From: a virus | Taxonomy: Duplodnaviria; Caudoviricetes | Strand: one strand, 5' to 3' | DNA length: 38,710 bases | IMG/VR virus record: IMGVR_UViG_3300044260_000033 | Span: 1 to 38,710 of that record | Shown: piece after piece, positions 2,063-21,474 of the stretch | Layout: each line of letters starts with the position of its first letter | Position numbering within the stretch: the stretch's first letter is position 1 | The notes under the pieces: generated by a model | Databases searched by the model: none | Seen by the model: the letters and a program-made list of their open reading frames with translations, nothing else | What the model was told of the DNA's origin: nothing | Translations under genes and position numbers: made by a program

Positions 2063-2115
2063 CGCAAGATAGGGTCTGGACAACGGCGCGCGGAACACCT
2101 ATGGTTGTCGTGGTC
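2063..2115 (+). promoter_or_regulatory. Early promoter P1 (TGGACA-N17-TATGGT)
   Basis: -35-like TGGACA 2077-2082 and -10-like TATGGT 2100-2105; 21-nt block identical to 15296-15316. Confidence 0.7.
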
Positions 2116-2155
2116 GGAGCAGTCAACCGGCCGGGACCAGTCGAGGAGACGAGAC

Positions 2156-3292
2156 GTGAACGCAATCCAGCAGGCCATCGCCGCGAGCGGACGGAGCAGC
2201 TACTGCAGTAAGTGCGGGAGCCTCAAGCCGGTCGGCGAGTTCTACATCCGCCCCGACGGCCGCGTCTCGGCGATGTGCAAGGCGTGCAAGGCGCAGTACC
2301 GAGCGACCAAGCGCGGCTCGACCCCGCGAGCCCCGCGAGCGACGACGGCCAAGGTCGCGAGCCGCTCCGCGGTCCAGGCGGCGCAGGCCGCGGCCGCGCA
2401 GGTCTCGACGGCTCCGACGCCGGTCGCGCGAGCGATCGCCAAGGTCAACTCCGACTACAAGCCGGCGCCGGACCTCATCGCCACCTGGGCCGCGGTCCAG
2501 CTGATCGCCGCCGACGGCGAGCCGTCCCCCAACATGCTGTTCGTCGGACCCTCCGGCTCCGGCAAGACCGAGGCGGCCCGGTATCTCGCGGCGCTCTCCG
2601 GTCTCGACTTCGTCAAGGTCGACGCTCCGTCGATGACCGACCCCGAGGCGTGGTTCGGCACGCGCGAGGTCGTCGTCGAGAACGGCTCGCCGCGGACCGA
2701 GTACCACCCGTCGGCGTTCGTCGACGCGCTCACCCGCCCCTGCGTCCTGCTCATCGACGAGGTCAACCGAGTCTCGGACGCGGTCCGGAACATCCTCCTC
2801 GCACTGCTCGACGCGACCCGGCAGGTCACCAACCCGATCACCGGCCAGACGGTCGTCCGGCACCCGGCGTCGTTCATCCTGATGACCGGCAACGTCGGCC
2901 TCGCGTTCACCGGGACCTACGCGATCGACCCCGCGTTCTTCACCCGCGCGCTCACGACGGTGTTCGACTACCTCCCGGCCGGCGACGAGAACCGGCTGGC
3001 GGTCGACCGGACCGGCGTCTCGGCCGAGTCGGCCGGCCTGTTCGTCCGGTTCGCGAACGACACGCGCGCCCGCCACAAGACGGACCCCGACTTCCCGCCC
3101 ATCTCGACTCGCGAGGTTCTCGAGGCCTGCCGGCTCGTCGCCCGCGGTCTCGACGTCGACATCGCCGCGCACCAGGTCATCATCAACGCGGCGTCCGAGG
3201 ACGGCGGCGCGCAGTCCGTCAAGGCCGACCTGGAGCGCATCTGGCTCGGCATCCGGCCGGCGGTCTCGTTCGTCGGAGCGCCCCGCGCCTGA
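2156..3292 (+). CDS. MoxR/CobS-like AAA+ ATPase with N-terminal Cys4 zinc finger
   Basis: Walker A GPSGSGKT, Walker B LLIDEVNR, TGN sensor, ISTRE sensor 2; N-terminal CSKC...EFY...CKAC; start GTG 2156 after AGGAGACGAG. Confidence 0.85.
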   Translation: MNAIQQAIAASGRSSYCSKCGSLKPVGEFYIRPDGRVSAMCKACKAQYRATKRGSTPRAPRATTAKVASRSAVQAAQAAAAQVSTAPTPVARAIAKVNSDYKPAPDLIATWAAVQLIAADGEPSPNMLFVGPSGSGKTEAARYLAALSGLDFVKVDAPSMTDPEAWFGTREVVVENGSPRTEYHPSAFVDALTRPCVLLIDEVNRVSDAVRNILLALLDATRQVTNPITGQTVVRHPASFILMTGNVGLAFTGTYAIDPAFFTRALTTVFDYLPAGDENRLAVDRTGVSAESAGLFVRFANDTRARHKTDPDFPPISTREVLEACRLVARGLDVDIAAHQVIINAASEDGGAQSVKADLERIWLGIRPAVSFVGAPRA

Positions 3293-3307
3293 TCAGCGAT
3301 CCGCGCT

Positions 3308-3342
3308 CGGCCGGCTCCGGAGACGGGGCCGGCCGTTCTGCG
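3308..3342 (+). terminator. Probable intrinsic terminator
   Basis: 12-bp stem CGGCCGGCTCCG/CGGGGCCGGCCG (one G-U) with GAGA tetraloop, followed by TTCTG. Confidence 0.65.
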
Positions 3343-3355
3343 TCCGCGCTGAAGT

Positions 3356-3400
3356 TAGGTCTGGACATCCGGCGCGGCGCAGGTACGATTGGCGTAGTCA
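3356..3400 (+). promoter_or_regulatory. Early promoter P2 (TGGACA-N16-TACGAT)
   Basis: GGTCTGGACA...TACGATTGGCGTAGTC, same layout as P1 and P3. Confidence 0.7.
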
Positions 3401-3419
3401 AGTCACGAGGAGACGAGAG

Positions 3420-5375
3420 ATGGCCAAGCGCAACTGGTGGAACGAGACCTCCGCAGCCGACGACGGCGCGCTCGACGACGACGACGCGTACATCGTCGAC
3501 GAGGACGAGACGGTCGACACCGGCTGGCTCGACGACTTCCGGTTCGACGACTACCGGCTCTCCGGCGCCTCCGCCTCGATCGGCGGGTTCTGGGGGGCCT
3601 ACGGCTCGGCCGACCGGACCGACACGGCCAAGCGCATCGCGGCCGCGCAGCGAGTCGTTCAGGGGTTCGTCAACACGTTCGCGACCGGCGACCTCCCGTA
3701 CCGCGTCACGTTCGACGAGAGCGTCGCGACCGCCGGGACCGACTTCGCGAGCCGGTCGGTCGTCATCTCCCACCGCCCGCTGTTCGACCCCTCGCTGACC
3801 GACGACGAGGCGAACACGATCCTGACGGCGATGGCCTGCCACGAGGCCGACCACGTCCGGTACGGCCGGCACACCGCAGCCGCGGTCGACGCGGCGTTCG
3901 CCGGCGACCGGAACCTCCGAGCCGCTCAGCGCATCAGCAACATCCTCGACGACTCGCGCATCGAGCGCCGGCACGTCGAGGACTACCCCGGCTATGACGG
4001 CATCTACACGCCGGCCATCGACTACGTCGCCCGGACGATGAACCACGGCGCGGTCCCGGCCGCGTCCGCGCTCTCGCCGATCGACGTCATCTGCGGCGCG
4101 GTCCGGTACACGAACCACGTCGACTGGACCGGCTCCGAGACCGAGCGCGACTTCTGGCTCGACTGGGCGGCTCGCGGCTCCGCGGACGACTCGGCCGAGA
4201 CGCACGTCGCGGCGGTCCGCGAGGCCGTCGAGCGGCTCGCCAGCCAGCCGGAGCCGGAGCCGGAGCCGCAGGACGGCCAGGGCAACGGCGAGGGCGGCTC
4301 GCAGAGCGGCGCCGGCGAGAGCGGCTCCGGCCAGCCGAGCGGCTCCGAGAGCGGCGAGAGCGGCTCCGAGAGCGCCGAGAGCGACGAGACCGAGAGCGGC
4401 TCCGAGCCGACGAACGGGACCGGGACCGGCGGGACGGTCGACGACACCTCGACGCTCCCGACCTGCTACGCGGACGCGATCGACGACGCGGCGCGCGAGA
4501 ACGGCGAGACGTCCGGTCTGGAGACCGACGAGGCCCAGGAGCTGATCGAGCAGGCCAAGGCGCTGGTCGACCTCCCGGACGGCAACCACGGCGAGGTCTA
4601 CTGGAGCGCCGACGGCGTCGTCGACACGCGCGACGACGTCGAGGCGAACGGCGCGGCGGCAGCGGCGGTCCGGTCGGCGTTCTCGCGGTCCCGGACCGGC
4701 CACTTCGACGTCGAGCGCGGCCACAAGTCCGGCCGGCTCGACAACCGCTCGCTCGTCCGCGTCGCGTCGAACGACTACCGGCTGTTCAACCGCCGGACGG
4801 CCCCGTCCGAGGGCCGGTACCTCGTCTGGCTGCTGGTCGACTGCTCCGGCTCGATGAACGGCCGGCCGATCGAGCAGGCCACGCAGGTCGCCTCGGCGGT
4901 CGCGCAGGCGAGCCGCGGCCTCCCGCAGCTCCGGCTCGACATCTGGGGCTGGAGCACCGGCTTCCGGCTCGGCGGTCGGTTCGGCGCCACGCGCGTCTGG
5001 ACGACCGGCGCCCCGATCAGCAACGTCGGCTTCCTCCCGAACGTCCCCGGCTCCGGCACCCCGGACGCCGAGGTTCTCCAGTGGGCGACCAAGGCGATCA
5101 AGGCAGCGGCCCGCCGGGACGAGACGCCGGTCATCATCATCGCGAGCGACGGCCAGGGCACCCTCAAGTACGCCATCGAGAACGGCGAGGACCACATCGC
5201 AGCGGCTCGCAAGGCCGGCGTCGAGGTCGTCTCGGTCGCTCTCGGCTCCGGCATCCACCGGGACGCGCAGGAGCGGATGTACGGCCCCAAGGGCTACATC
5301 CCGTGGGCCGGGAGCATCGCGGCGACGGCCGGACCGCTCGGCAAGCTGATCGGCCGCATCGCGTCGGGCCGGTAG
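3420..5375 (+). CDS. CobT-like protein: HExxH metallopeptidase-like domain, acidic linker, vWA domain
   Basis: CHEADH and NILDDSRIE; E/S/G-rich linker; GRLDNRSL; MIDAS DCSGSM, GTP, SDG; adjacent to the AAA+ gene. Confidence 0.8.
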   Translation: MAKRNWWNETSAADDGALDDDDAYIVDEDETVDTGWLDDFRFDDYRLSGASASIGGFWGAYGSADRTDTAKRIAAAQRVVQGFVNTFATGDLPYRVTFDESVATAGTDFASRSVVISHRPLFDPSLTDDEANTILTAMACHEADHVRYGRHTAAAVDAAFAGDRNLRAAQRISNILDDSRIERRHVEDYPGYDGIYTPAIDYVARTMNHGAVPAASALSPIDVICGAVRYTNHVDWTGSETERDFWLDWAARGSADDSAETHVAAVREAVERLASQPEPEPEPQDGQGNGEGGSQSGAGESGSGQPSGSESGESGSESAESDETESGSEPTNGTGTGGTVDDTSTLPTCYADAIDDAARENGETSGLETDEAQELIEQAKALVDLPDGNHGEVYWSADGVVDTRDDVEANGAAAAAVRSAFSRSRTGHFDVERGHKSGRLDNRSLVRVASNDYRLFNRRTAPSEGRYLVWLLVDCSGSMNGRPIEQATQVASAVAQASRGLPQLRLDIWGWSTGFRLGGRFGATRVWTTGAPISNVGFLPNVPGSGTPDAEVLQWATKAIKAAARRDETPVIIIASDGQGTLKYAIENGEDHIAAARKAGVEVVSVALGSGIHRDAQERMYGPKGYIPWAGSIAATAGPLGKLIGRIASGR

Positions 5376-8560: not shown

Positions 8561-8811
8561 ACGGCGACGGCGCGGACCTCCGGGACTTCGCCGTCCAGAT
8601 GCGCGCTGTCGTCGACCAGTTCTCGGTCGGCGCGCAGCGCGCGTCGGACGCGCTGACCGAGTGGGCTCGGCTCTACGCGAGCAACGCGCTGATCGGCTCC
8701 CTCCCGGACGTCCTCCCGACCGTCGACTACCCCGACGAGCGCGGCTGCCGGCTCTGCGGAGCCACCATCGAGTTGGGATGCTGCACGCGGTGCGGCGTCC
8801 CGGAGGAGTGA
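8557..8811 (+). CDS. Hypothetical protein with C-terminal Cys cluster
   Basis: GTGA overlap start; CRLC...CCTRC. Confidence 0.5.
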   Translation: MNGDGADLRDFAVQMRAVVDQFSVGAQRASDALTEWARLYASNALIGSLPDVLPTVDYPDERGCRLCGATIELGCCTRCGVPEE

Positions 8812-8812
8812 G

Positions 8813-9547
8813 ATGACCACCGACACGACGATGCCTGACGGCCACTGGACCTTCGACGCGAGCGTCACGGACGCGTTCGACGATATGCTGGAGCGGTCCA
8901 TCCCGGCGTACAACGTGATGCGCGACCTGACGACGTCGCTCGCGGTCGCGCACCTGCAGCCGGGGACCGCGCTCGTCGACCTCGGCTGCTCCCGAGGCCA
9001 GGCGATCGGCCACGTGCTCGACCGGCTCGACCACGACACCCCCAACTGGCGCCGAGCCGCGGTCGACGGGACGCGGTTCGTCGGCGTGGACGTCTCGGTC
9101 CCGATGCTCAACGCGGCCCGCCAGCGGTTCGCCGGCAACCGGCTCGTCGACATCCGGCCGTGCGACCTCCGGACGTCGTACCCGGACGAGATGGCGTCGG
9201 TCACGCTCGCGGTCCTGACCGTCCAGTTCACGCCGATCGAGCACCGGCTACGTATTCTCCAGAACGCGTACAACCACACCGTGCCGGGCGGCGCGCTCCT
9301 GATCGTCGAGAAGCTGCTTGGCGAGTCGGCCGAGCTGCACGACGTGTACGACCGCGAGTACCTCCGGATGAAGGCCGCGCACGGCTACACGCAGGAGGCC
9401 ATCGTCCGCAAGAAGGCGTCGCTAGAGGGCGTGCTCGTCTCGACGTCGGCGCGGTACCTCCAGCACATGCTAGAGGGTGTCGGGTTCCGGTACGTCGACG
9501 CGTACTACCGCTGGCTGAACTTCGGCGGCTGGGTGGCGGTCCGATGA
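8813..9547 (+). CDS. cmoA: CmoA-like carboxy-S-adenosylmethionine synthase (class I SAM-dependent fold)
   Basis: WTFDASVTDAFDDMLERSIPAY, LVDLGCSRG, GVDVSVPML, LTVQF, PGGALLIVEK, GYTQEAIVRKKASLEGVL and RWLNFGGWVAVR all follow the CmoA pattern. Confidence 0.8.
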   Translation: MTTDTTMPDGHWTFDASVTDAFDDMLERSIPAYNVMRDLTTSLAVAHLQPGTALVDLGCSRGQAIGHVLDRLDHDTPNWRRAAVDGTRFVGVDVSVPMLNAARQRFAGNRLVDIRPCDLRTSYPDEMASVTLAVLTVQFTPIEHRLRILQNAYNHTVPGGALLIVEKLLGESAELHDVYDREYLRMKAAHGYTQEAIVRKKASLEGVLVSTSARYLQHMLEGVGFRYVDAYYRWLNFGGWVAVR

Positions 9548-9843
9548 CGCCGGACGACCAGATGAGCCTCGCGCTGTTCAAGTTCTGCCACGAGGCTATG
9601 CACGGCCATCTCGCTCGGCTCGTCGAGTCGGGCTCCGGTCCATCGTCCCTCGAGGCCGACCTGCTCGGACCGCTCGCTATGGAGATGTTCTACGGCGGTC
9701 TGAGTCTCGCGCTCCGGTACCCGGCCGAGGCCGCGCTGTACCGCGAGCAGATGCGCGGGATCGCTCCCGGCCGCGAGGCCGTCGAGCGGACCGAGACCGA
9801 GGACATCGACGCGCTCGCTGCGGCGACGAGGAGGCCGGCGTGA
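9544..9843 (+). CDS. Hypothetical protein
   Basis: ATGA overlap with cmoA; MTPDDQMSLALFKF... Confidence 0.55.
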   Translation: MTPDDQMSLALFKFCHEAMHGHLARLVESGSGPSSLEADLLGPLAMEMFYGGLSLALRYPAEAALYREQMRGIAPGREAVERTETEDIDALAAATRRPA

Positions 9844-10088
9844 GCAAGCCGCGCCACTTCGGACAGCAGCTCGTCCAGCGAGGGCCGGTCCCGCGCCGGC
9901 TCCAGGAGTCGATCGACGAGGCCGAGCGGCTCGCGTTCGCCGTCGAGTGGCGGGACGCCGAGCACCGGCTGGACCTGATGGAGCGCGCTCCGCACCGCGT
10001 CCGGATGATCATCCGCCGGGACGAGGAGCGCGCGTACGAGGAGGAGCTGCGGCGTCGAGCCGCGGAGGAGACCGATGGAGAGGCCTGA
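9840..10088 (+). CDS. Hypothetical protein
   Basis: GTGA overlap; GAGGAGG RBS upstream. Confidence 0.55.
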   Translation: MSKPRHFGQQLVQRGPVPRRLQESIDEAERLAFAVEWRDAEHRLDLMERAPHRVRMIIRRDEERAYEEELRRRAAEETDGEA

Positions 10089-10287
10089 TCCGCACCGGAT
10101 GCCGCTCCGCGTCCGGCTCGCGTACGTCGTCCACCGGCACGTCCTGAACCCGCTCGCGTGGCGCTACGCGAGACCGCCGGGACCGCAGTGGGGGATCGTC
10201 GACCGCATCGACCGCCGGCACCCGCTCTGGCGGCTCAACGACCGCGTCGCCAACGTCTGGACGTCGTGGTGGGTGGAGCACCTATGA
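10075..10287 (+). CDS. Hypothetical Trp/Arg-rich small protein
   Basis: GGAGGAG RBS; stop overlaps the MTase ATG. Confidence 0.5.
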   Translation: MERPDPHRMPLRVRLAYVVHRHVLNPLAWRYARPPGPQWGIVDRIDRRHPLWRLNDRVANVWTSWWVEHL

Positions 10288-11765
10288 GCGACCTGACGCA
10301 CGCGTCGTTCTTCTCCGGTATCGGAGCGTTCGACCTGGGGCTGGAGCGCGCGGGGTTCCGCGTCGTCTCGCACGCGGAGGTCAAGCCGTTCTCGTGCGCG
10401 GTCCTGGAGACGCACTGGCCGGGGGTCCCGAATCTCGGCGACATCAACGCCATCTGCCCTACGGGCGAGGGCGACCACGAGTGCGAGATACCGCCGGCCA
10501 CCGTCTGGTCGGGTGGGTTCCCGTGCTCCGACTTCTCCATCATGGGACTACGGAAGGGACTGCTAGGTGGCAACCGATCCTCCCTCGGACTGGTCTTCCT
10601 CGACCTTGTTCGACGACACCGCCCTCCGTTCGTCGTCCTCGAGAATGTCCCCGGGCTCCTCTCTTCTCATGAGGGCCGGGACCTTGCGCTCCTCCTCAGT
10701 GTTCTGGAGGACATCGGGTACGGGTGGGCGTTCAGGCTTCTGGACGCGCGACACTTCGGACTACCCCAGGCGCGACGGCGGCTATTCATTGTCGCGGCTG
10801 CTGATGCCGAACGTGCCGGAGCGGTTCTCGATGACGTCACGGACCGCGGCGTGGATGCTGCGTCGTTCGGAGGACCGAGCGGAGCCGCTCTGGCCGGAGG
10901 TAGAGACGGCGCTGATCAGCGTCCTGCAGTCGTCATCGGACCTACATACGCTCCTCGCTCAGACGCCATCGTCCGCACCGACGGGACTACGTTCCCGATC
11001 ACGCCCGGCAACCTCCAGTACGTCCTCGACGAGCCAATCACCATCCAGCGCCGAGGGTTCTCCGGAGCCGACGTCCGACGGGACGGAACAGCCTACACCC
11101 TCCTCCCCGACGACGCCGGCCGACAGTACGTCACCGAGCCGATCGTCATCGAGCGGCACGGCCACTTCGAACCGCAGGTCAAGCGGGACGGGACGGCGTA
11201 CACGATCCTCCCGGTCGGAGCCGGCGGCAACATCGGACAGCAGTACGTCGTCGACCGAGGACCGGGACCGACCGTTCTCGCCGGCGTCTTCCCGAAGCGA
11301 CGAGAGCAGCGCTCCCCGAGCCGAGCCGACGGGAGCAGCTACACCCTCACTCCCGGAGTCATCCCCTACGTCGTCGAGCCCGGCGACTGGGACGACCTCC
11401 CTGATGTTCGGGGAGACGGAGGACTGGGAGGAGACCGAGACGGAGCCGGAGCCGGAGCTGGTCTCCGGGCTCTCGCTCCCGCAGAGGATCATCGACCGGC
11501 TCCTGACGGAGACGATCCCGCCGGTACGGGTCCGGCGCCTGACGCCGACGGAGTGCGAGCGGCTGCAGGGCTTCCCGGATGGCTGGACGATCCCGTCGGA
11601 GACGGCGTTGACCCGGTGGGGCCGCAGCATCTCGACACCGCTCGATGGCACGTCCTCGGACGCGCTTGCCCGGTCCCTGTCGTCGAGTGGATCGCGCTCG
11701 GCATCCGCGCAGTCATCAACGGAGACGAGGTGAGTGGTGAAGACGCAGACGCAGCAGGTACTTGA
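10284..11765 (+). CDS. DNA cytosine-C5 (carboxy)methyltransferase, alpha polypeptide (motifs I-VIII and X)
   Basis: FSGIG (I), GDI (III), GGFPC (IV), ENVPG (VI), QARRRLFIVA (VIII), ARWHVLGRACPVPVVEWI (X); motif IX is absent from this frame. Confidence 0.88.
   Translation: MSDLTHASFFSGIGAFDLGLERAGFRVVSHAEVKPFSCAVLETHWPGVPNLGDINAICPTGEGDHECEIPPATVWSGGFPCSDFSIMGLRKGLLGGNRSSLGLVFLDLVRRHRPPFVVLENVPGLLSSHEGRDLALLLSVLEDIGYGWAFRLLDARHFGLPQARRRLFIVAAADAERAGAVLDDVTDRGVDAASFGGPSGAALAGGRDGADQRPAVVIGPTYAPRSDAIVRTDGTTFPITPGNLQYVLDEPITIQRRGFSGADVRRDGTAYTLLPDDAGRQYVTEPIVIERHGHFEPQVKRDGTAYTILPVGAGGNIGQQYVVDRGPGPTVLAGVFPKRREQRSPSRADGSSYTLTPGVIPYVVEPGDWDDLPDVRGDGGLGGDRDGAGAGAGLRALAPAEDHRPAPDGDDPAGTGPAPDADGVRAAAGLPGWLDDPVGDGVDPVGPQHLDTARWHVLGRACPVPVVEWIALGIRAVINGDEVSGEDADAAGT
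10567..11733 (+). CDS. Overprinted +1-frame polypeptide (C5-MTase beta subunit carrying motif IX)
   Basis: 388 codons open inside the MTase gene; contains SLSRLL...ERFSMTSRTAAWMLRRSEDRAEPL and RRLTPTECERLQGFPDGWT (11533-11589); AAGGGA upstream of GTG; true start uncertain. Confidence 0.7.
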   Translation: MATDPPSDWSSSTLFDDTALRSSSSRMSPGSSLLMRAGTLRSSSVFWRTSGTGGRSGFWTRDTSDYPRRDGGYSLSRLLMPNVPERFSMTSRTAAWMLRRSEDRAEPLWPEVETALISVLQSSSDLHTLLAQTPSSAPTGLRSRSRPATSSTSSTSQSPSSAEGSPEPTSDGTEQPTPSSPTTPADSTSPSRSSSSGTATSNRRSSGTGRRTRSSRSEPAATSDSSTSSTEDRDRPFSPASSRSDESSAPRAEPTGAATPSLPESSPTSSSPATGTTSLMFGETEDWEETETEPEPELVSGLSLPQRIIDRLLTETIPPVRVRRLTPTECERLQGFPDGWTIPSETALTRWGRSISTPLDGTSSDALARSLSSSGSRSASAQSSTETR

Positions 11766-12003
11766 CGCGCTCCGGGAGCGCGGACCGGAGGGGCTGACGC
11801 CTCTCGACGCGCAGCGGTGGATCGGGACGATGCGGCTCGCCGCTCGCGTCTCGGACGCCAAGGAGCTGCTGGACGACGACGAGGAGATCATCACCGAGCG
11901 GTTCCGGACGCCGGGAGGGGCGGTCGTCGCGCGGTACGTCCTCCGACGTAGGACGGTCCGGGAGGCGGTCCCGATGACGCTCTGGCCGGAGACAGGACGA
12001 TGA
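11734..12003 (+). CDS. Winged helix-turn-helix protein (HTH_39-like)
   Basis: TQTQQVLDALRERG..LTPLDA...IGTMRLAARVSD...VVARYVL; GGAGACGAG upstream. Confidence 0.7.
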   Translation: MVKTQTQQVLDALRERGPEGLTPLDAQRWIGTMRLAARVSDAKELLDDDEEIITERFRTPGGAVVARYVLRRRTVREAVPMTLWPETGR

Positions 12004-12290
12004 GACGTCGCACGGGTCTTCGTGGCTCTTCGGGCACGTCGATCCCGCCGGCGCTCAGGCTGGAGGTCCTGGAGCGCGACCGCGGCTGCGTCGGGTTCGG
12101 CCGGTTCCCCGGCTACTGCGCCGGCGCGCTCCAGCTAGACCACGTCCGCGCGTCGCACGGGATGGGGATGAAGTCCGAGACCGAGGTCGGGAACCTCGTC
12201 GCGCTCTGCGGCGCGCACCATCAGTGGAAGACCGAGCACGGACGCGTCGCGCGTCCCATCCTGCTCGCGTACCTGGAGACGAGGGCATGA
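12000..12290 (+). CDS. HNH endonuclease
   Basis: VLERDRGC...LQLDHV...GNLVALCGAHHQWKT. Confidence 0.85.
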   Translation: MRRRTGLRGSSGTSIPPALRLEVLERDRGCVGFGRFPGYCAGALQLDHVRASHGMGMKSETEVGNLVALCGAHHQWKTEHGRVARPILLAYLETRA

Positions 12291-12625
12291 TCAGCAGCCC
12301 GTACCGGCCACGGCCGGTGGAGCACGACGAGGAGCTGGGGCCCGTCCGGTACTGCCCCGGCTGCGACGAGTGGTGGCCGGACGACGAGGAGTTCTGGATC
12401 GTCTCCCCGCCGCACGAGGTCGGCGAGGTCGGACGCTACCGGGACCGGACCTACATCCGCCGGACGCCGAGCCAGAAGATCCTGTGCCGCGCCTGCCACT
12501 ATGAGCGCAAGCGCCGGTGGAACGAGCGGAACGACGTCGACCCGGAGCGGCGGGAGCGCCGGCTGCGCCAGATGCGCGAGAGCGCGAGACGCTACCGGGT
12601 CCGCCGGCGAGAGGCGGCGTCCTGA
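12287..12625 (+). CDS. Cys4 zinc-finger protein with basic C-terminal helix
   Basis: CPGC...EFW...CRAC followed by an Arg-rich helix; GGAGACGAG at 12275-12283. Confidence 0.65.
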   Translation: MISSPYRPRPVEHDEELGPVRYCPGCDEWWPDDEEFWIVSPPHEVGEVGRYRDRTYIRRTPSQKILCRACHYERKRRWNERNDVDPERRERRLRQMRESARRYRVRRREAAS

Positions 12626-13191
12626 TGCCGGAGCGCGAGGCCAAGGGCCGGATGCTCGTCCGGGAGCTGATGGCCGACCGGGAGTTCATGACGGCGTTCT
12701 CGGCCGAGGAGCGCGAGTGGTACCTGCTGACGTCGCTGTTCGCCGACGACGCCGGCTACCTCGTCTGGGACGTCGAGAGCAACGCGGCGAACCTCTACCG
12801 ATACGAGACTCCGCGTCATCGAGTCGTGAAGGTCCGACGGATCGCGGCCAAGATGATCAGCGCGGACAGGCTCGTGGAGCTGGAATGCGGCCGCCACGCG
12901 TTCATGCCGCGGGTCGCGAGACGCCCTAGGGGGATGAAACGGGAGGACGGCGTCCGTCGAGAGCACTCCGAGTGCACTCCCAGTGCACAGGGTGAGCAGT
13001 CGGATCGAGAAGCGGAGAGTGCTCAGGGAGTGCACTCGGACAGCTCAGCTGTGCACTCGCCTTCCCTTCCTTCTCCAAGCCATACCAATCCCACGCGCGC
13101 GACCGCGCGCGACGGGCTGAGGCCACTGAGAGAGGCGCTGGTCGCGAACGGCCTGGACCCGGCGCTGCTCCCGGAGAGGAGGTCGCGATGA
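12625..13191 (+). CDS. Putative replication initiator / replisome organiser
   Basis: RMLVRELMAD.EF...WYLL...FADDAGY N-terminus resembles phage O-like initiators; internal DNA repeat array and PSLPSPS linker. Confidence 0.55.
   Translation: MPEREAKGRMLVRELMADREFMTAFSAEEREWYLLTSLFADDAGYLVWDVESNAANLYRYETPRHRVVKVRRIAAKMISADRLVELECGRHAFMPRVARRPRGMKREDGVRREHSECTPSAQGEQSDREAESAQGVHSDSSAVHSPSLPSPSHTNPTRATARDGLRPLREALVANGLDPALLPERRSR
12961..13078. repeat. Iteron-like palindrome array, probable replication origin
   Basis: GTGCAC-centred palindromes near 12970, 12981, 13028, 13049; perfect 15-bp inverted repeat 12967-12981 / 13026-13040; pyrimidine tract follows. Confidence 0.6.
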
Positions 13192-13580
13192 TCTACGTCG
13201 TCGGCGAGCGGCTCGGGACCGGACGGAGCCGGCATCGTCTCGCCTCGCTGTTCGGGGTCTCGGAGGAGCAGATGATGGAGCACGTCGTCTGGGTGAACCT
13301 CTGGGACTATCCGGGGGCCGTCCCGGACAACTACGCGGCGATGATTGAGCAGGCGGCGCTCTACACGGACACCGTCGTCCTGCTCGGCCGGAGGGTCGCC
13401 GGCGTGTTCGCTCTCGGGACCAAGCCGTGGCTGACGCGGATCGTCCGGAACGCCGGCGCCGGTCCCGACGTGCTCGTGATCCCGCATCCGAGCGGCCGCA
13501 ACTTCTGGTGGAACGCCAAGGCCAACGAGGACGCGGCTCGGTCCCTGCTCCGGGCCGCGTGGATGAGGAGCGGACGATGA
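13188..13580 (+). CDS. Uracil-DNA-glycosylase-superfamily-like protein
   Basis: IYVVGE, WVNL, VVLLGRRVA, VIPHPSGRNFWWN. Confidence 0.65.
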   Translation: MIYVVGERLGTGRSRHRLASLFGVSEEQMMEHVVWVNLWDYPGAVPDNYAAMIEQAALYTDTVVLLGRRVAGVFALGTKPWLTRIVRNAGAGPDVLVIPHPSGRNFWWNAKANEDAARSLLRAAWMRSGR

Positions 13581-19305: not shown

Positions 19306-19493
19306 GCCGGCGCAAGCACCGTCCGTCGAAGGCGTCCCGTCCGGCGAGCCGGCGCTACATCGACTCGGCCATGCGGCGTCTCCGGGACGACGTCGTCCGA
19401 GCCGTCCTCTGGGCCGGTCGCCCGGACGTCGTCGAGCAGATGACGCAGGAGCAGATCGAGCGCCGGCTACGCGGCTATGGTCGCGGCCGGTAG
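19302..19493 (+). CDS. Small basic protein
   Basis: ATGA overlap; Arg-rich. Confidence 0.45.
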   Translation: MSRRKHRPSKASRPASRRYIDSAMRRLRDDVVRAVLWAGRPDVVEQMTQEQIERRLRGYGRGR

Positions 19494-21474
19494 CGTCGTC
19501 CGTCCTACTCGCGCGCCGGGGCAGGTCGCTCCCGGCGCGCGGGAGCGCGCTCGCGGCTCGTCGGCTCGGCGCGGCTACGGTCGGGGCTGGCGCGCGGTAC
19601 GGCGCAACCACCTGCTCGACGAGCCGCTCTGCCGTAGCTGCGGCGCTCTCGGCGCTCACGTGGACCACATCGTGGAGCGGCGGGACGGCGGGACGGACGA
19701 CGAGTCGAACCTGCAGACCCTCTGCAGCTCCTGCCACTCCCGCAAGACCCTCAAGCGGACGCGGGCCGGCCGGAAGTCGGCGCACAATACCAAACCGGCG
19801 CCGGCCGGAGACCGTTACGCTCGTTTCCGCGAGAGACACCTGCAGGTTTCTCAGCCCCCCTCGGCGGTGGCGGCCGGACCGCAGCAGATCACGGGTACGA
19901 CGCCGGAGCAGCTCACCCTCGTCCCCACCCGGTCTCCGCTCCGGCCGTTCACGATGCGGCACTGGCGGCGGTGGACGTCCGACCTGATCCTCGACAACGG
20001 CGAGTCGTGGCACCCGGAGGGCTTCCAGGACGCGTTCGTCGAGGACGTGTTCTCCGGCGTCAAGGAGGCGTGGCTGGTCGTCCCGGAGGGGAACGGCAAG
20101 TCGACCCTGCTGAGCGGGCTCGGGCTCTACCACACGGAGCACCGGCCGCACGCGTCGGTCCCGATCGCCGCGTCGAGCCGGGAGCAGGCGGAGATCATGT
20201 ACCGGCAGGCCGAGGGTTTCGTGCTCCGGTCGGACCGGCTCCACCGGACGGTCCGGAGCGACCTGCAGGCGGCCAAGGGCAAGCGGAAGCTCGACGTCCC
20301 GCTGTTCGTCTGCCTGGAGGGCTATCGCCGGATCAACCACGCGGAGGGCGGCCGCATCCAGGTGTTCGCCGCGGACGACCGGACCGGCGACGGGATCATC
20401 CCGACGCTCGGGCTGCTCGACGAGCTGCACCGCCACCGGGACCTCGGCCTGTACCGGACGTGGGCCGGCAAGCTGCTGAAGCGCGACGGCCAGGTGGTCG
20501 GCATCTCGACCGCCGGCGAGCCGGGAAGCGACTTCGAGCAGACGCGCGAGGCCATCAGGCGCCGGAGCACGGCCGTCGAGTCTCGGGGGTTCTTCACCCG
20601 CTACGCAGGCTCCGGCGTCGTGCTACACGAGTGGATGGTCCCGGCCGACGTCGAGCCGGACGACTTCCGGGCGGTCAAGCGCGCGAATCCGCTCCGGAGC
20701 ATCACGGTCCCGGACCTCCGCGAGAAGTTCAACAGCCCGACGATGACGCTCCCGCACTGGTCCCGGTTCGTGATGAACCGGCCGACGCGCTCGTCGACCG
20801 CGGCGATCGAGGACCGTGAGTGGGCGCTCGCGGCGACCGACGAGGTCATCCCGGAGGGCGAGCCGGTCTGGCTCGGTCTCGACGTCGCGTGGAAGTGGGA
20901 CACGACCGCGCTCGTCCCGCTCTGGTGGGCGTCGCCGGAGCACCGGCTTCTCGGGCCGGCGACGATCCTGACCCCGCCGCGCGACGGCTCGTCGCTCGAC
21001 CCCGACCTCGTCGAGGCGGCCCTACTCGCGGTCCACGCGCGGAACCCGGTCCACACGGTGGTGATGGACACGACGCGAGCCGAGCAGCTGGCGACCTGGA
21101 TCGCGCGGACGCTCGGCGCGACCGTCGTCGACCGGCCGCAGACGTCGCTCTGGGCGGCCGCCGACTACGCGTCGTTCACGGAGGCGCTCCGCTCCGGCTG
21201 GCTCCGGCACTCCGGCGACGCCGGCCTGACCAAGCACGTCCTGAACGCGATCGCCAAGCCGCTCCCGGACGGCCGCCTGCGGTTCGACCGGCCGGCCGAC
21301 AACCGCGTCGCCGGCGCCGAGCAGGAGCGGCGAGTCATCGACGCGCTGACGGCGGCCGCGATGGTCCACTCGGTCGCCGCAGAACCCGCCGAAGAGCCCG
21401 AGCCTACACCTGGACTCCTCGCGTATTATGAGGCGCAGATCGCGGCCGCCACTGCCGCGGCGAGCGGAGCCTGA
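19477..21474 (+). CDS. terL: Terminase large subunit with in-frame N-terminal HNH endonuclease
   Basis: RGYGRGW...PLCRSC...VDHI...NLQTLCSSCHSRKT (HNH); VPEGNGKST, LLDELH, ISTAG, ANP, LGLDVA..WDTTA, IDALTA (TerL). Confidence 0.88.
   Translation: MVAAGSVVRPTRAPGQVAPGARERARGSSARRGYGRGWRAVRRNHLLDEPLCRSCGALGAHVDHIVERRDGGTDDESNLQTLCSSCHSRKTLKRTRAGRKSAHNTKPAPAGDRYARFRERHLQVSQPPSAVAAGPQQITGTTPEQLTLVPTRSPLRPFTMRHWRRWTSDLILDNGESWHPEGFQDAFVEDVFSGVKEAWLVVPEGNGKSTLLSGLGLYHTEHRPHASVPIAASSREQAEIMYRQAEGFVLRSDRLHRTVRSDLQAAKGKRKLDVPLFVCLEGYRRINHAEGGRIQVFAADDRTGDGIIPTLGLLDELHRHRDLGLYRTWAGKLLKRDGQVVGISTAGEPGSDFEQTREAIRRRSTAVESRGFFTRYAGSGVVLHEWMVPADVEPDDFRAVKRANPLRSITVPDLREKFNSPTMTLPHWSRFVMNRPTRSSTAAIEDREWALAATDEVIPEGEPVWLGLDVAWKWDTTALVPLWWASPEHRLLGPATILTPPRDGSSLDPDLVEAALLAVHARNPVHTVVMDTTRAEQLATWIARTLGATVVDRPQTSLWAAADYASFTEALRSGWLRHSGDAGLTKHVLNAIAKPLPDGRLRFDRPADNRVAGAEQERRVIDALTAAAMVHSVAAEPAEEPEPTPGLLAYYEAQIAAATAAASGA

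Follow-up and report, generated by a model that had tools for sequence, protein, structure and literature searches.

The locus at positions 10284 to 11765 of a phage genome raises the question of whether one stretch of bases can encode both parts of a cytosine-C5 DNA transferase in two overlapping reading frames and, if so, which group the enzyme would transfer. The window, i.e., the whole stretch of DNA that was analyzed, is the 38,710-nucleotide IMG/VR record IMGVR_UViG_3300044260_000033. An earlier note on this DNA had described transferase motifs I to VIII and X in one frame (alpha) and motif IX in the +1 frame (beta), and open reading frames and Pfam searches on both frames bore out this description. 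We consider it very probable that the locus encodes a two-chain, two-frame enzyme and, given such an enzyme, quite probable that it transfers carboxymethyl; taken jointly, a heterodimeric two-frame cytosine-C5 carboxymethyltransferase is likely, as judged from sequence comparison.

The phage genome has a GC content of 70.6%, and its ends overlap, the first 168 bases recurring at the end with 167 of 168 identical. Most of this DNA was found in a single sequencing run, from a sediment metagenome that is probably its source. The genome appears complete, and the 42% completeness estimated in the IMG/VR record itself is taken as an underestimate because of this overlap. The two-frame gene sits in the early region, which also carries genes for a YqaJ nuclease, a CmoA homolog, an HNH protein, a uracil-DNA-glycosylase (UDG)-like protein, and a VRR-NUC protein. 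The CmoA homolog, a predicted carboxy-SAM synthase, was matched to the E. coli CmoA structure 4gek (E value, 2.8e-28), to phrog_4752 (E value, 6e-62), and to TIGR00740 with 136 bits, which is under the NCBIfam cutoff of 193; it is at most 41.5% identical to phage CmoA-like genes. Its gene ends 737 bp upstream of alpha, with three small genes in between. The small UDG-like gene lies at 13188-13580 (Pfam E value of 3e-4, below the cutoff). Elsewhere, a single open reading frame (19477-21474) encodes a terminase large subunit with an N-terminal HNH domain, and a gene pair (2105-5375) encodes an AAA ATPase and a VWA-domain protein of the CobS/CobT-like phage type. Several 6-bp palindromes were strongly depleted on both strands of positions 1 to 38542 (ACCGGT, 0 versus 37 expected; GAGCTC, 0 versus 28; AGCGCT, 2 versus 48), which fits restriction avoidance, and the short-word bias of the genome indicated no target site of the enzyme.

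Features of the two-frame gene and of the nearby cmoA-like gene
Feature	Positions	Strand	Basis
cmoA-like gene, predicted carboxy-SAM synthase, 244 aa	8813..9547	+	Structure, profile, and phrog matches
Alpha chain, 493 aa: C5 cytosine transferase motifs I-VIII, target-recognition-like repeats, spacer, motif X	10284..11765	+	ATG 10284, stop 11763-11765
Alpha motif IV, Pro80-Cys81-Ser82; catalytic Cys intact, Ser at the M.HhaI Gln82 position	10521..10529	+	21/21 clade members
Ribosome-binding-like, purine-rich GGAAGGGA, 7 nt before the beta GTG	10552..10559	+	Sequence; putative function
Beta chain, +1 frame relative to alpha, 388 aa from GTG 10567 (362 aa from ATG 10645), wholly nested in alpha	10567..11733	+	ORF; full-length called homologs P0121-P0123
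Beta N module: W..SG..G..W..T..P stretch and SLSRLL...RFSM...WMLRR block	10705..10929	+	Family alignment; profile versus 3lx6
Alpha: four RxDGxx[Y/F]T[I/L]xP-type target-recognition-like repeats; beta, same bases: Ser/Thr-rich linker	10929..11381	+	Alignment
Beta C module: acidic tract, LSLP..I..R, motif IX, conserved helix after motif IX; alpha, poorly conserved spacer	11404..11632	+	Conservation, codon adaptation
Alpha motif X, with Arg460 (11661-11663) at the M.HhaI Asn304/SpCmoX Arg350 position	11643..11723	+	Alignments; main text of PMC12783734

Two overlapping frames and their conservation

Alpha contains the stretches FSGIG, GGFPCSD, ENVPG, QARRR, and RWHVLGRACPVP and has no in-frame motif IX, which is found in beta as RRLTPTECERLQGFPDGWT (11533-11589). 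Both frames matched the Pfam DNA_methylase family, each over its own part of the profile (positions 3-163 for alpha and 209-300 for beta). A beta profile aligned to the Dcm structure 3lx6 (E value, 3.4e-4) over motif IX and over the segment after motif VIII, which in single-chain enzymes is the counterpart of the beta N module. Because both modules align in this way to the single-chain Dcm, beta appears to supply two scaffold segments that flank the target-recognition region.

An assembly error was excluded, because one contig of run X1 spans 8700-12300 at a depth of 68 with no differences and no gaps, and because all 20 close relatives are likewise without an in-frame motif IX. Run X1 is probably the source of this DNA and thus not independent, and the comparison was made with contigs, not raw reads; an independent run, X5, contains a relative approximately 90% alike over 10285-11902. 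The compensating indels that the earlier note had proposed to look for were not seen in the X1 contig, and the split was shared by all 20 relatives.

Codon adaptation was compared with that of 14 reference genes, which range from 0.70 to 0.82. Alpha scored 0.73 at its start, 0.22 to 0.42 over 10479-10928, and 0.54 in the repeats, in agreement with the departure in codon usage that had been noticed near 10480-10960. Over 11382-11630, beta is the codon-adapted frame (0.69 versus 0.24 for alpha), and this switch of frame is the strongest local signal. The beta-frame linker is not adapted (0.33). Alpha is poorly adapted (0.42) even over 10479-10566, ahead of the +1 stop at 10564; this may be a relic of a longer beta such as that of relatives or the cost of the ribosome-binding-like site. 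The open +1 frame of 388 codons, to which attention had been drawn before, is indeed present but is weak evidence alone because of the high GC content: given the alpha protein and the codon usage of the phage, the probability of staying open is 0.04 to 0.06 for the whole +1 frame and 0.14 to 0.17 for the middle linker. Thus, the two-frame case rests on conservation.

A search with the alpha protein gave 303 matches, the best 120 of which were examined for motif IX. The clade comprises 21 members including the window, the 20 close relatives (50 to 87% identity) being derived from JGI, Logan, ENA, and NCBI. All 20 relatives read through to motif X without an in-frame motif IX and have an off-frame motif IX shadow; the in-frame pattern was found in 1 of the 120 best alpha homologs and in none of the 21 clade members. 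The mean identity of motif IX was 93% (11 homologs), versus 37% for the alpha spacer (20 relatives). Besides, beta is continuous in three independent homologs (P0121-P0123) with 51 to 68% identity and differing linker lengths; these full-length homologs come from a search favoring long open frames, which also gave one partial homolog and seven short calls of 96 to 118 aa that contain the C module only and lie on contigs of 0.9 to 2.6 kb. In alpha, Met followed by Ile, Met, Thr, Asn, or Lys forces a +1 stop. Such pairs were absent from the overlap both in the clade (0 of 6,055 residues versus 4 of 2,319 outside; 19 of 21 members scored) and in the sister family (0 of 11,115 versus 28 of 12,547; 66 of 99 scored), although the conservation and dipeptide counts are from related rows and so are not independent of kinship. 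Among the 19 substitutions listed in the gene, four fall in the first 19 codons of beta and are silent in alpha, and the four that lie in the N block form a mixed set. The three listed for the motif IX module, which come from independent runs, alter alpha but not beta.

The clade is small, because a profile search at full scale returned just four representatives at 50% identity. Scans of viral contigs with single proteins (alpha or CmoA) found no relative, alignment scans for clade loci found relatives of the Asn/Asp type only, and motif-pattern scans gave no true match, the one pattern match being an off-frame false match in a portal gene.

The split itself was overrated in the earlier note. 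When 160 related loci (134 distinct) were fetched, the block and motif IX lay together in one +1 frame in at least 60 distinct loci, and 19 distinct loci had the block in the +1 frame but motif IX in alpha; the remaining distinct loci were truncated, split otherwise, or missed by the patterns used. Sister loci also have additional repeats between the end of beta and motif X. The layout varies further: in L002, L008, L013, and others, the +1 frame starts much earlier, upstream of motif VI, with a stretch (FPSRYS...DTLT) like the alpha repeats, so that target-recognition-like repeats can occupy either frame. In L065, L066, L069, L070, L075, and L077, alpha ends shortly past motif VIII, beta is the block alone, and motifs IX and X occur together in a later frame, a layout that suggests three pieces.

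With regard to the start of beta, GTG 10567 has the purine-rich site upstream and is common to P0121, and ATG 10645 is at the position of Met17 of EcoHK31I beta, as compared by eye with published primers. The alternative start at ATG 11404, which had been put forward earlier, is not supported: it has no ribosome-binding-like site upstream, and most of 11 homologs have Leu, Asp, or another residue in place of its Met, with differing called starts. The pattern of substitutions in the first codons implies that the extreme N terminus of beta is weakly constrained, so its start is uncertain.

The model of alpha as a single chain had a mean pLDDT of 48 and was confident only in the core and the last helix; a fold search with it returned C5 methylases, 8YF3 among them, and was nondiscriminating. 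A 42-residue motif X query matched no methylase in the PDB, although a profile did. The alpha-beta complex was modeled, as had been recommended. Its score was 0.82, whereas the best of three controls had 0.00; this mark is attained by 116 of 157 solved pairs and by 2 of 215 mismatched ones, but the model may pass because the chains resemble solved single-chain methylases. The runs had at least 26% of contacts in common, the partner had a pLDDT of 48 or more, and alpha is linked to both beta modules by the confident contacts.

Cofactor pocket and origin of the clade

Arg460 aligns to Asn304 of M.HhaI; in a CmoX-type phage enzyme, its counterpart is Arg. At this motif X position, Arg was present in all 21 clade members, versus Asn in 64 and Asp in 1 of 65 aligned relatives. 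The other 234 alpha-search matches had no Arg (Asn, 214; Asp, 1; unscored, 19), the seven extra Arg rows being cluster members of the clade. Sister loci L001-L160 also had no Arg (Asn, 126; Asp, 7; not scored, 26; no motif VI, 1); a loose pattern had flagged seven of them as Arg, but a stricter pattern confirmed none of these. Furthermore, the residue after the catalytic Cys is Ser in all 21 clade members, versus Gln in 227 of the 234 other matches and in all 159 loci, and the three CmoX-type enzymes have Ser, Ser, and Ala there. An Asp at motif X (YAACGD) in L078, L137-L139, L141-L143, L145, L219, L223, L245, and P0476 is a third pocket state.

In the CmoX report, Arg350 of SpCmoX binds the carboxylate of carboxy-SAM, and the wild-type enzyme takes carboxy-SAM only (main text of PMC12783734). 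Gln82 and Asn304 have been described as the residues that limit bulky cofactors in M.HhaI, and shortening of Gln82 lowered methylation approximately 16-fold and favored bulkier cofactors (PMC3526304). An Asn-to-Lys change at the Asn304 site is described as turning ordinary enzymes into carboxymethyltransferases, which still methylate with SAM and which serve in direct methylation sequencing (PMC12015181). Since the pocket is altered and a predicted carboxy-SAM synthase gene is near, the window enzyme is likely to add carboxymethyl, not methyl; because the SPPC motif of CmoX is absent and the engineered Lys variants retain methylation with SAM, the product may be mixed.

cmoA was found in none of 160 Asn/Asp-type loci (DNA around the loci, median 7.4 kb) and in none of 80 further loci. 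Runs X3 and X5 contain cmoA-like and methylase-like pieces on separate contigs, so that the linkage of cmoA and methylase in the clade is known from the window genome alone. In staphylococcal phages, methylase-like genes beside cmoA (L164, 6684-7682; L170, 5491-6498) lack both the Arg and the Ser (GSPCQ; motif X, VVGGV) and, by these motifs, represent a third kind of cmoA partner.

We propose that a second ribosome entry at GTG 10567 (or ATG 10645) would produce beta, whose N module would pack on the motif VII-VIII region of alpha and whose motif IX module would pack on alpha residues 33 to 44 and motif X, while the Ser-rich linker would stretch passively as alpha repeats are gained or lost. 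Cys81 would attack C6 of cytosine, Arg460 would hold the carboxylate of carboxy-SAM, and Ser82 would make room for it. The product would be 5-carboxymethylcytosine, probably without further amidation, and the modified cytosine may shield the phage from restriction. A search for a CmoY-like gene in the window (tblastn, 4 CmoY-like queries, E value of 0.05) gave no match, nor was a ParB-like gene found; the CmoY amide ligase is frequent but not universal in CmoA-CmoX-CmoY systems.

Based on a tree of motifs I to VIII, the clade is a single branch with support of 100/99 that groups with Asn-type two-frame enzymes (97/90), and its monophyly with three CmoX-type enzymes was rejected (p-AU of 0.014). 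This tree contains 38 of 153 prepared rows and 166 columns, with Arg460 left out, Ser82 included, and the three CmoX rows on a long branch; a quicker 103-row tree agreed with it. In these trees, the clade nests among Asn-type two-frame methylases, and common descent with CmoX was not recovered. The lineage thus likely arose, independently of CmoX, from a two-frame methylase with the ordinary Asn/Gln pocket. We lean toward the reading that DNA cytosine carboxymethylation arose in nature a second time and independently; a two-frame heterodimeric methylase would have gained cmoA together with the changes Gln82 to Ser and Asn304 to Arg. The novelty that had been placed in a putative carboxymethyltransferase is likewise supported, and the lineage moreover appears independent of CmoX. 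In titles and abstract openings of the literature (subscription papers being outside this scope), we found no description of a two-frame or GFPC-type carboxymethyltransferase, and the main text of the CmoX paper, supplements aside, contains neither "heterodimer" nor "reading frame" (PMC12783734).

Competing explanations and their implications

It is rather unlikely that the two-chain enzyme uses SAM and makes 5-methylcytosine or a mixture, with cmoA employed otherwise, e.g., in SAM draining or tRNA modification. Such an enzyme would accord with the missing SPPC motif, with the full protection of DNA described for an engineered Lys variant with SAM (PMC12015181), and with the fact that cmoA is not directly adjacent, some phage cmoA genes being without an annotated C5 methylase beside them. 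However, the two pocket positions are changed together in all 21 members, both toward the CmoX state, the donor range of wild-type SpCmoX speaks against it, and no other C5 transferase was found in the complete phage genome. The pocket changes might instead point to another bulky donor or to a complex that binds DNA but is catalytically dead, which we regard as improbable: although Lys34, Met87, Trp455, and His456 on the pocket side are also clade specific, and SpCmoX R350N is inactive with both donors, indicating a sensitive pocket (main text of PMC12783734), Cys81, Glu120, and the motif VIII arginines are invariant in the clade alignment, and the CmoA homolog is an obvious source of the donor.

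As for the number of chains, the enzyme might consist of three pieces, the beta N module being separate from a motif IX module started near ATG 11404, with the linker open by chance. The chance of an open linker given above, its lack of codon adaptation in the beta frame, and the seven homologs called as C-module proteins would all suit such an arrangement. We nevertheless find it unlikely, because a ribosome-binding-like site and a conserved Met are lacking at 11404, the short calls come from short contigs, beta is continuous in P0121-P0123, and forced stops are absent from the overlap. A single polypeptide made by programmed +1 and then -1 frameshifting, with motif IX stitched into alpha, would restore the usual order VIII-TRD-IX-X; it is very improbable, since in every one of the 21 members alpha has no stop across the motif IX shadow, sister loci have repeats between the end of beta and motif X, and M.EcoHK31I has been shown to function as two chains (PMC2836561). 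Moreover, one chain cannot hold both, because the beta N module and alpha motifs VI to VIII are read from the same bases. The least credible explanation by far is an assembly artefact or a decayed gene with two compensating indels: contigs rather than raw reads were compared, but the contig is gap free, and the same split recurs in dozens of loci as well as in the 20 relatives, which come from four databases.

If the proposed reading is true, the switch from methyl to carboxymethyl would be evolutionarily cheap, with at least two occurrences by the same two substitutions. Searches based on SPPC would underestimate the phages with 5-carboxymethylcytosine, and an SPPC survey would have excluded the window clade. 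The enzyme would also add a carboxymethyltransferase scaffold with one to six exchangeable repeats, the range counted per clade member with a loose pattern, and possibly with new or multiple target sequences, and its natural split would suit targeted-labeling designs. Furthermore, the gene offers a simple test of whether unannotated two-frame phage methylases need a hidden beta chain.

Comparison with known enzymes

M.EcoHK31I of E. coli HK31 (YGGCCR) is described as a two-chain C5 methyltransferase in which motif IX belongs to beta, a chain read from a different frame of the alpha gene (PMC2836561, PMC3404938), and it works as two chains (PMC2836561). The window gene has the same plan, i.e., an alpha with motifs I to VIII, a target-recognition region, and motif X and a nested, other-frame beta with motif IX. 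The M.EcoHK31I-type reading given earlier is consistent with this nested motif IX frame, with the Met17 match, and with the same spacing of 28 residues from the W-S-N-S-G block to the LSQVL block (by eye, primers in the supplement of PMC2836561). The SLSRLL...RF block, which had been likened to the EcoHK31I beta family, also matches by eye in the primers. The primer comparison and the alignment with look-alike loci L103 and L117 indicate that the two betas are homologous; the M.EcoHK31I record was found neither in the plasmid collection nor by searches with a look-alike locus. Whereas EcoHK31I beta, according to the same source, ends just past motif IX, the window beta adds the acidic tract and helix around motif IX. 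It is 362 to 388 aa long, unlike the M.EcoHK31I type, because the linker crosses four alpha repeats; the distance from motif VI to motif IX is 898 nt in the window and 316 to 520 nt in related loci. Unlike M.EcoHK31I, the window gene belongs to a phage, has no restriction partner seen, and has cmoA near, and its pocket has Arg and Ser instead of the Asn and Gln of related loci.

By sequence, the two-frame layout is not new, being known from M.EcoHK31I and common in phages. The unannotated two-frame phage C5 methylases (phrog_116 for alpha; L001-L160) are the direct sister group, with the same +1 block and motif IX.

SpCmoX, together with SpCmoA and SpCmoY, constitutes the system of Synechococcus phage S-B43 (PDB 8YF3; main text of PMC12783734). 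Like SpCmoX, the window enzyme has Arg at the M.HhaI Asn304 position and a small residue following the catalytic Cys, and its gene also has a phage cmoA nearby. SpCmoX, in contrast, is a monomer with SPPC, whereas the window clade has GFPC (20 of 21) or GVPC (1 of 21) and is split over two frames; the CmoX-type genes of RB11-B, S-CRM01, and TurkishDelight are single chains as well. The published CmoX survey listed 5,615 candidates filtered for SPPC and Arg350 (main text of PMC12783734). The same two pocket positions are altered in the engineered M.MpeI N374K, M.MedI N377K, and M.HhaI Q82A/N304A (PMC12015181, PMC3526304), but these variants are laboratory made and single chain, whereas the Ser/Arg pair of the window clade is natural and fixed. 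Thus, the best reading is that the window enzyme falls outside the CmoX family as published but probably functions like CmoX and is built like M.EcoHK31I.
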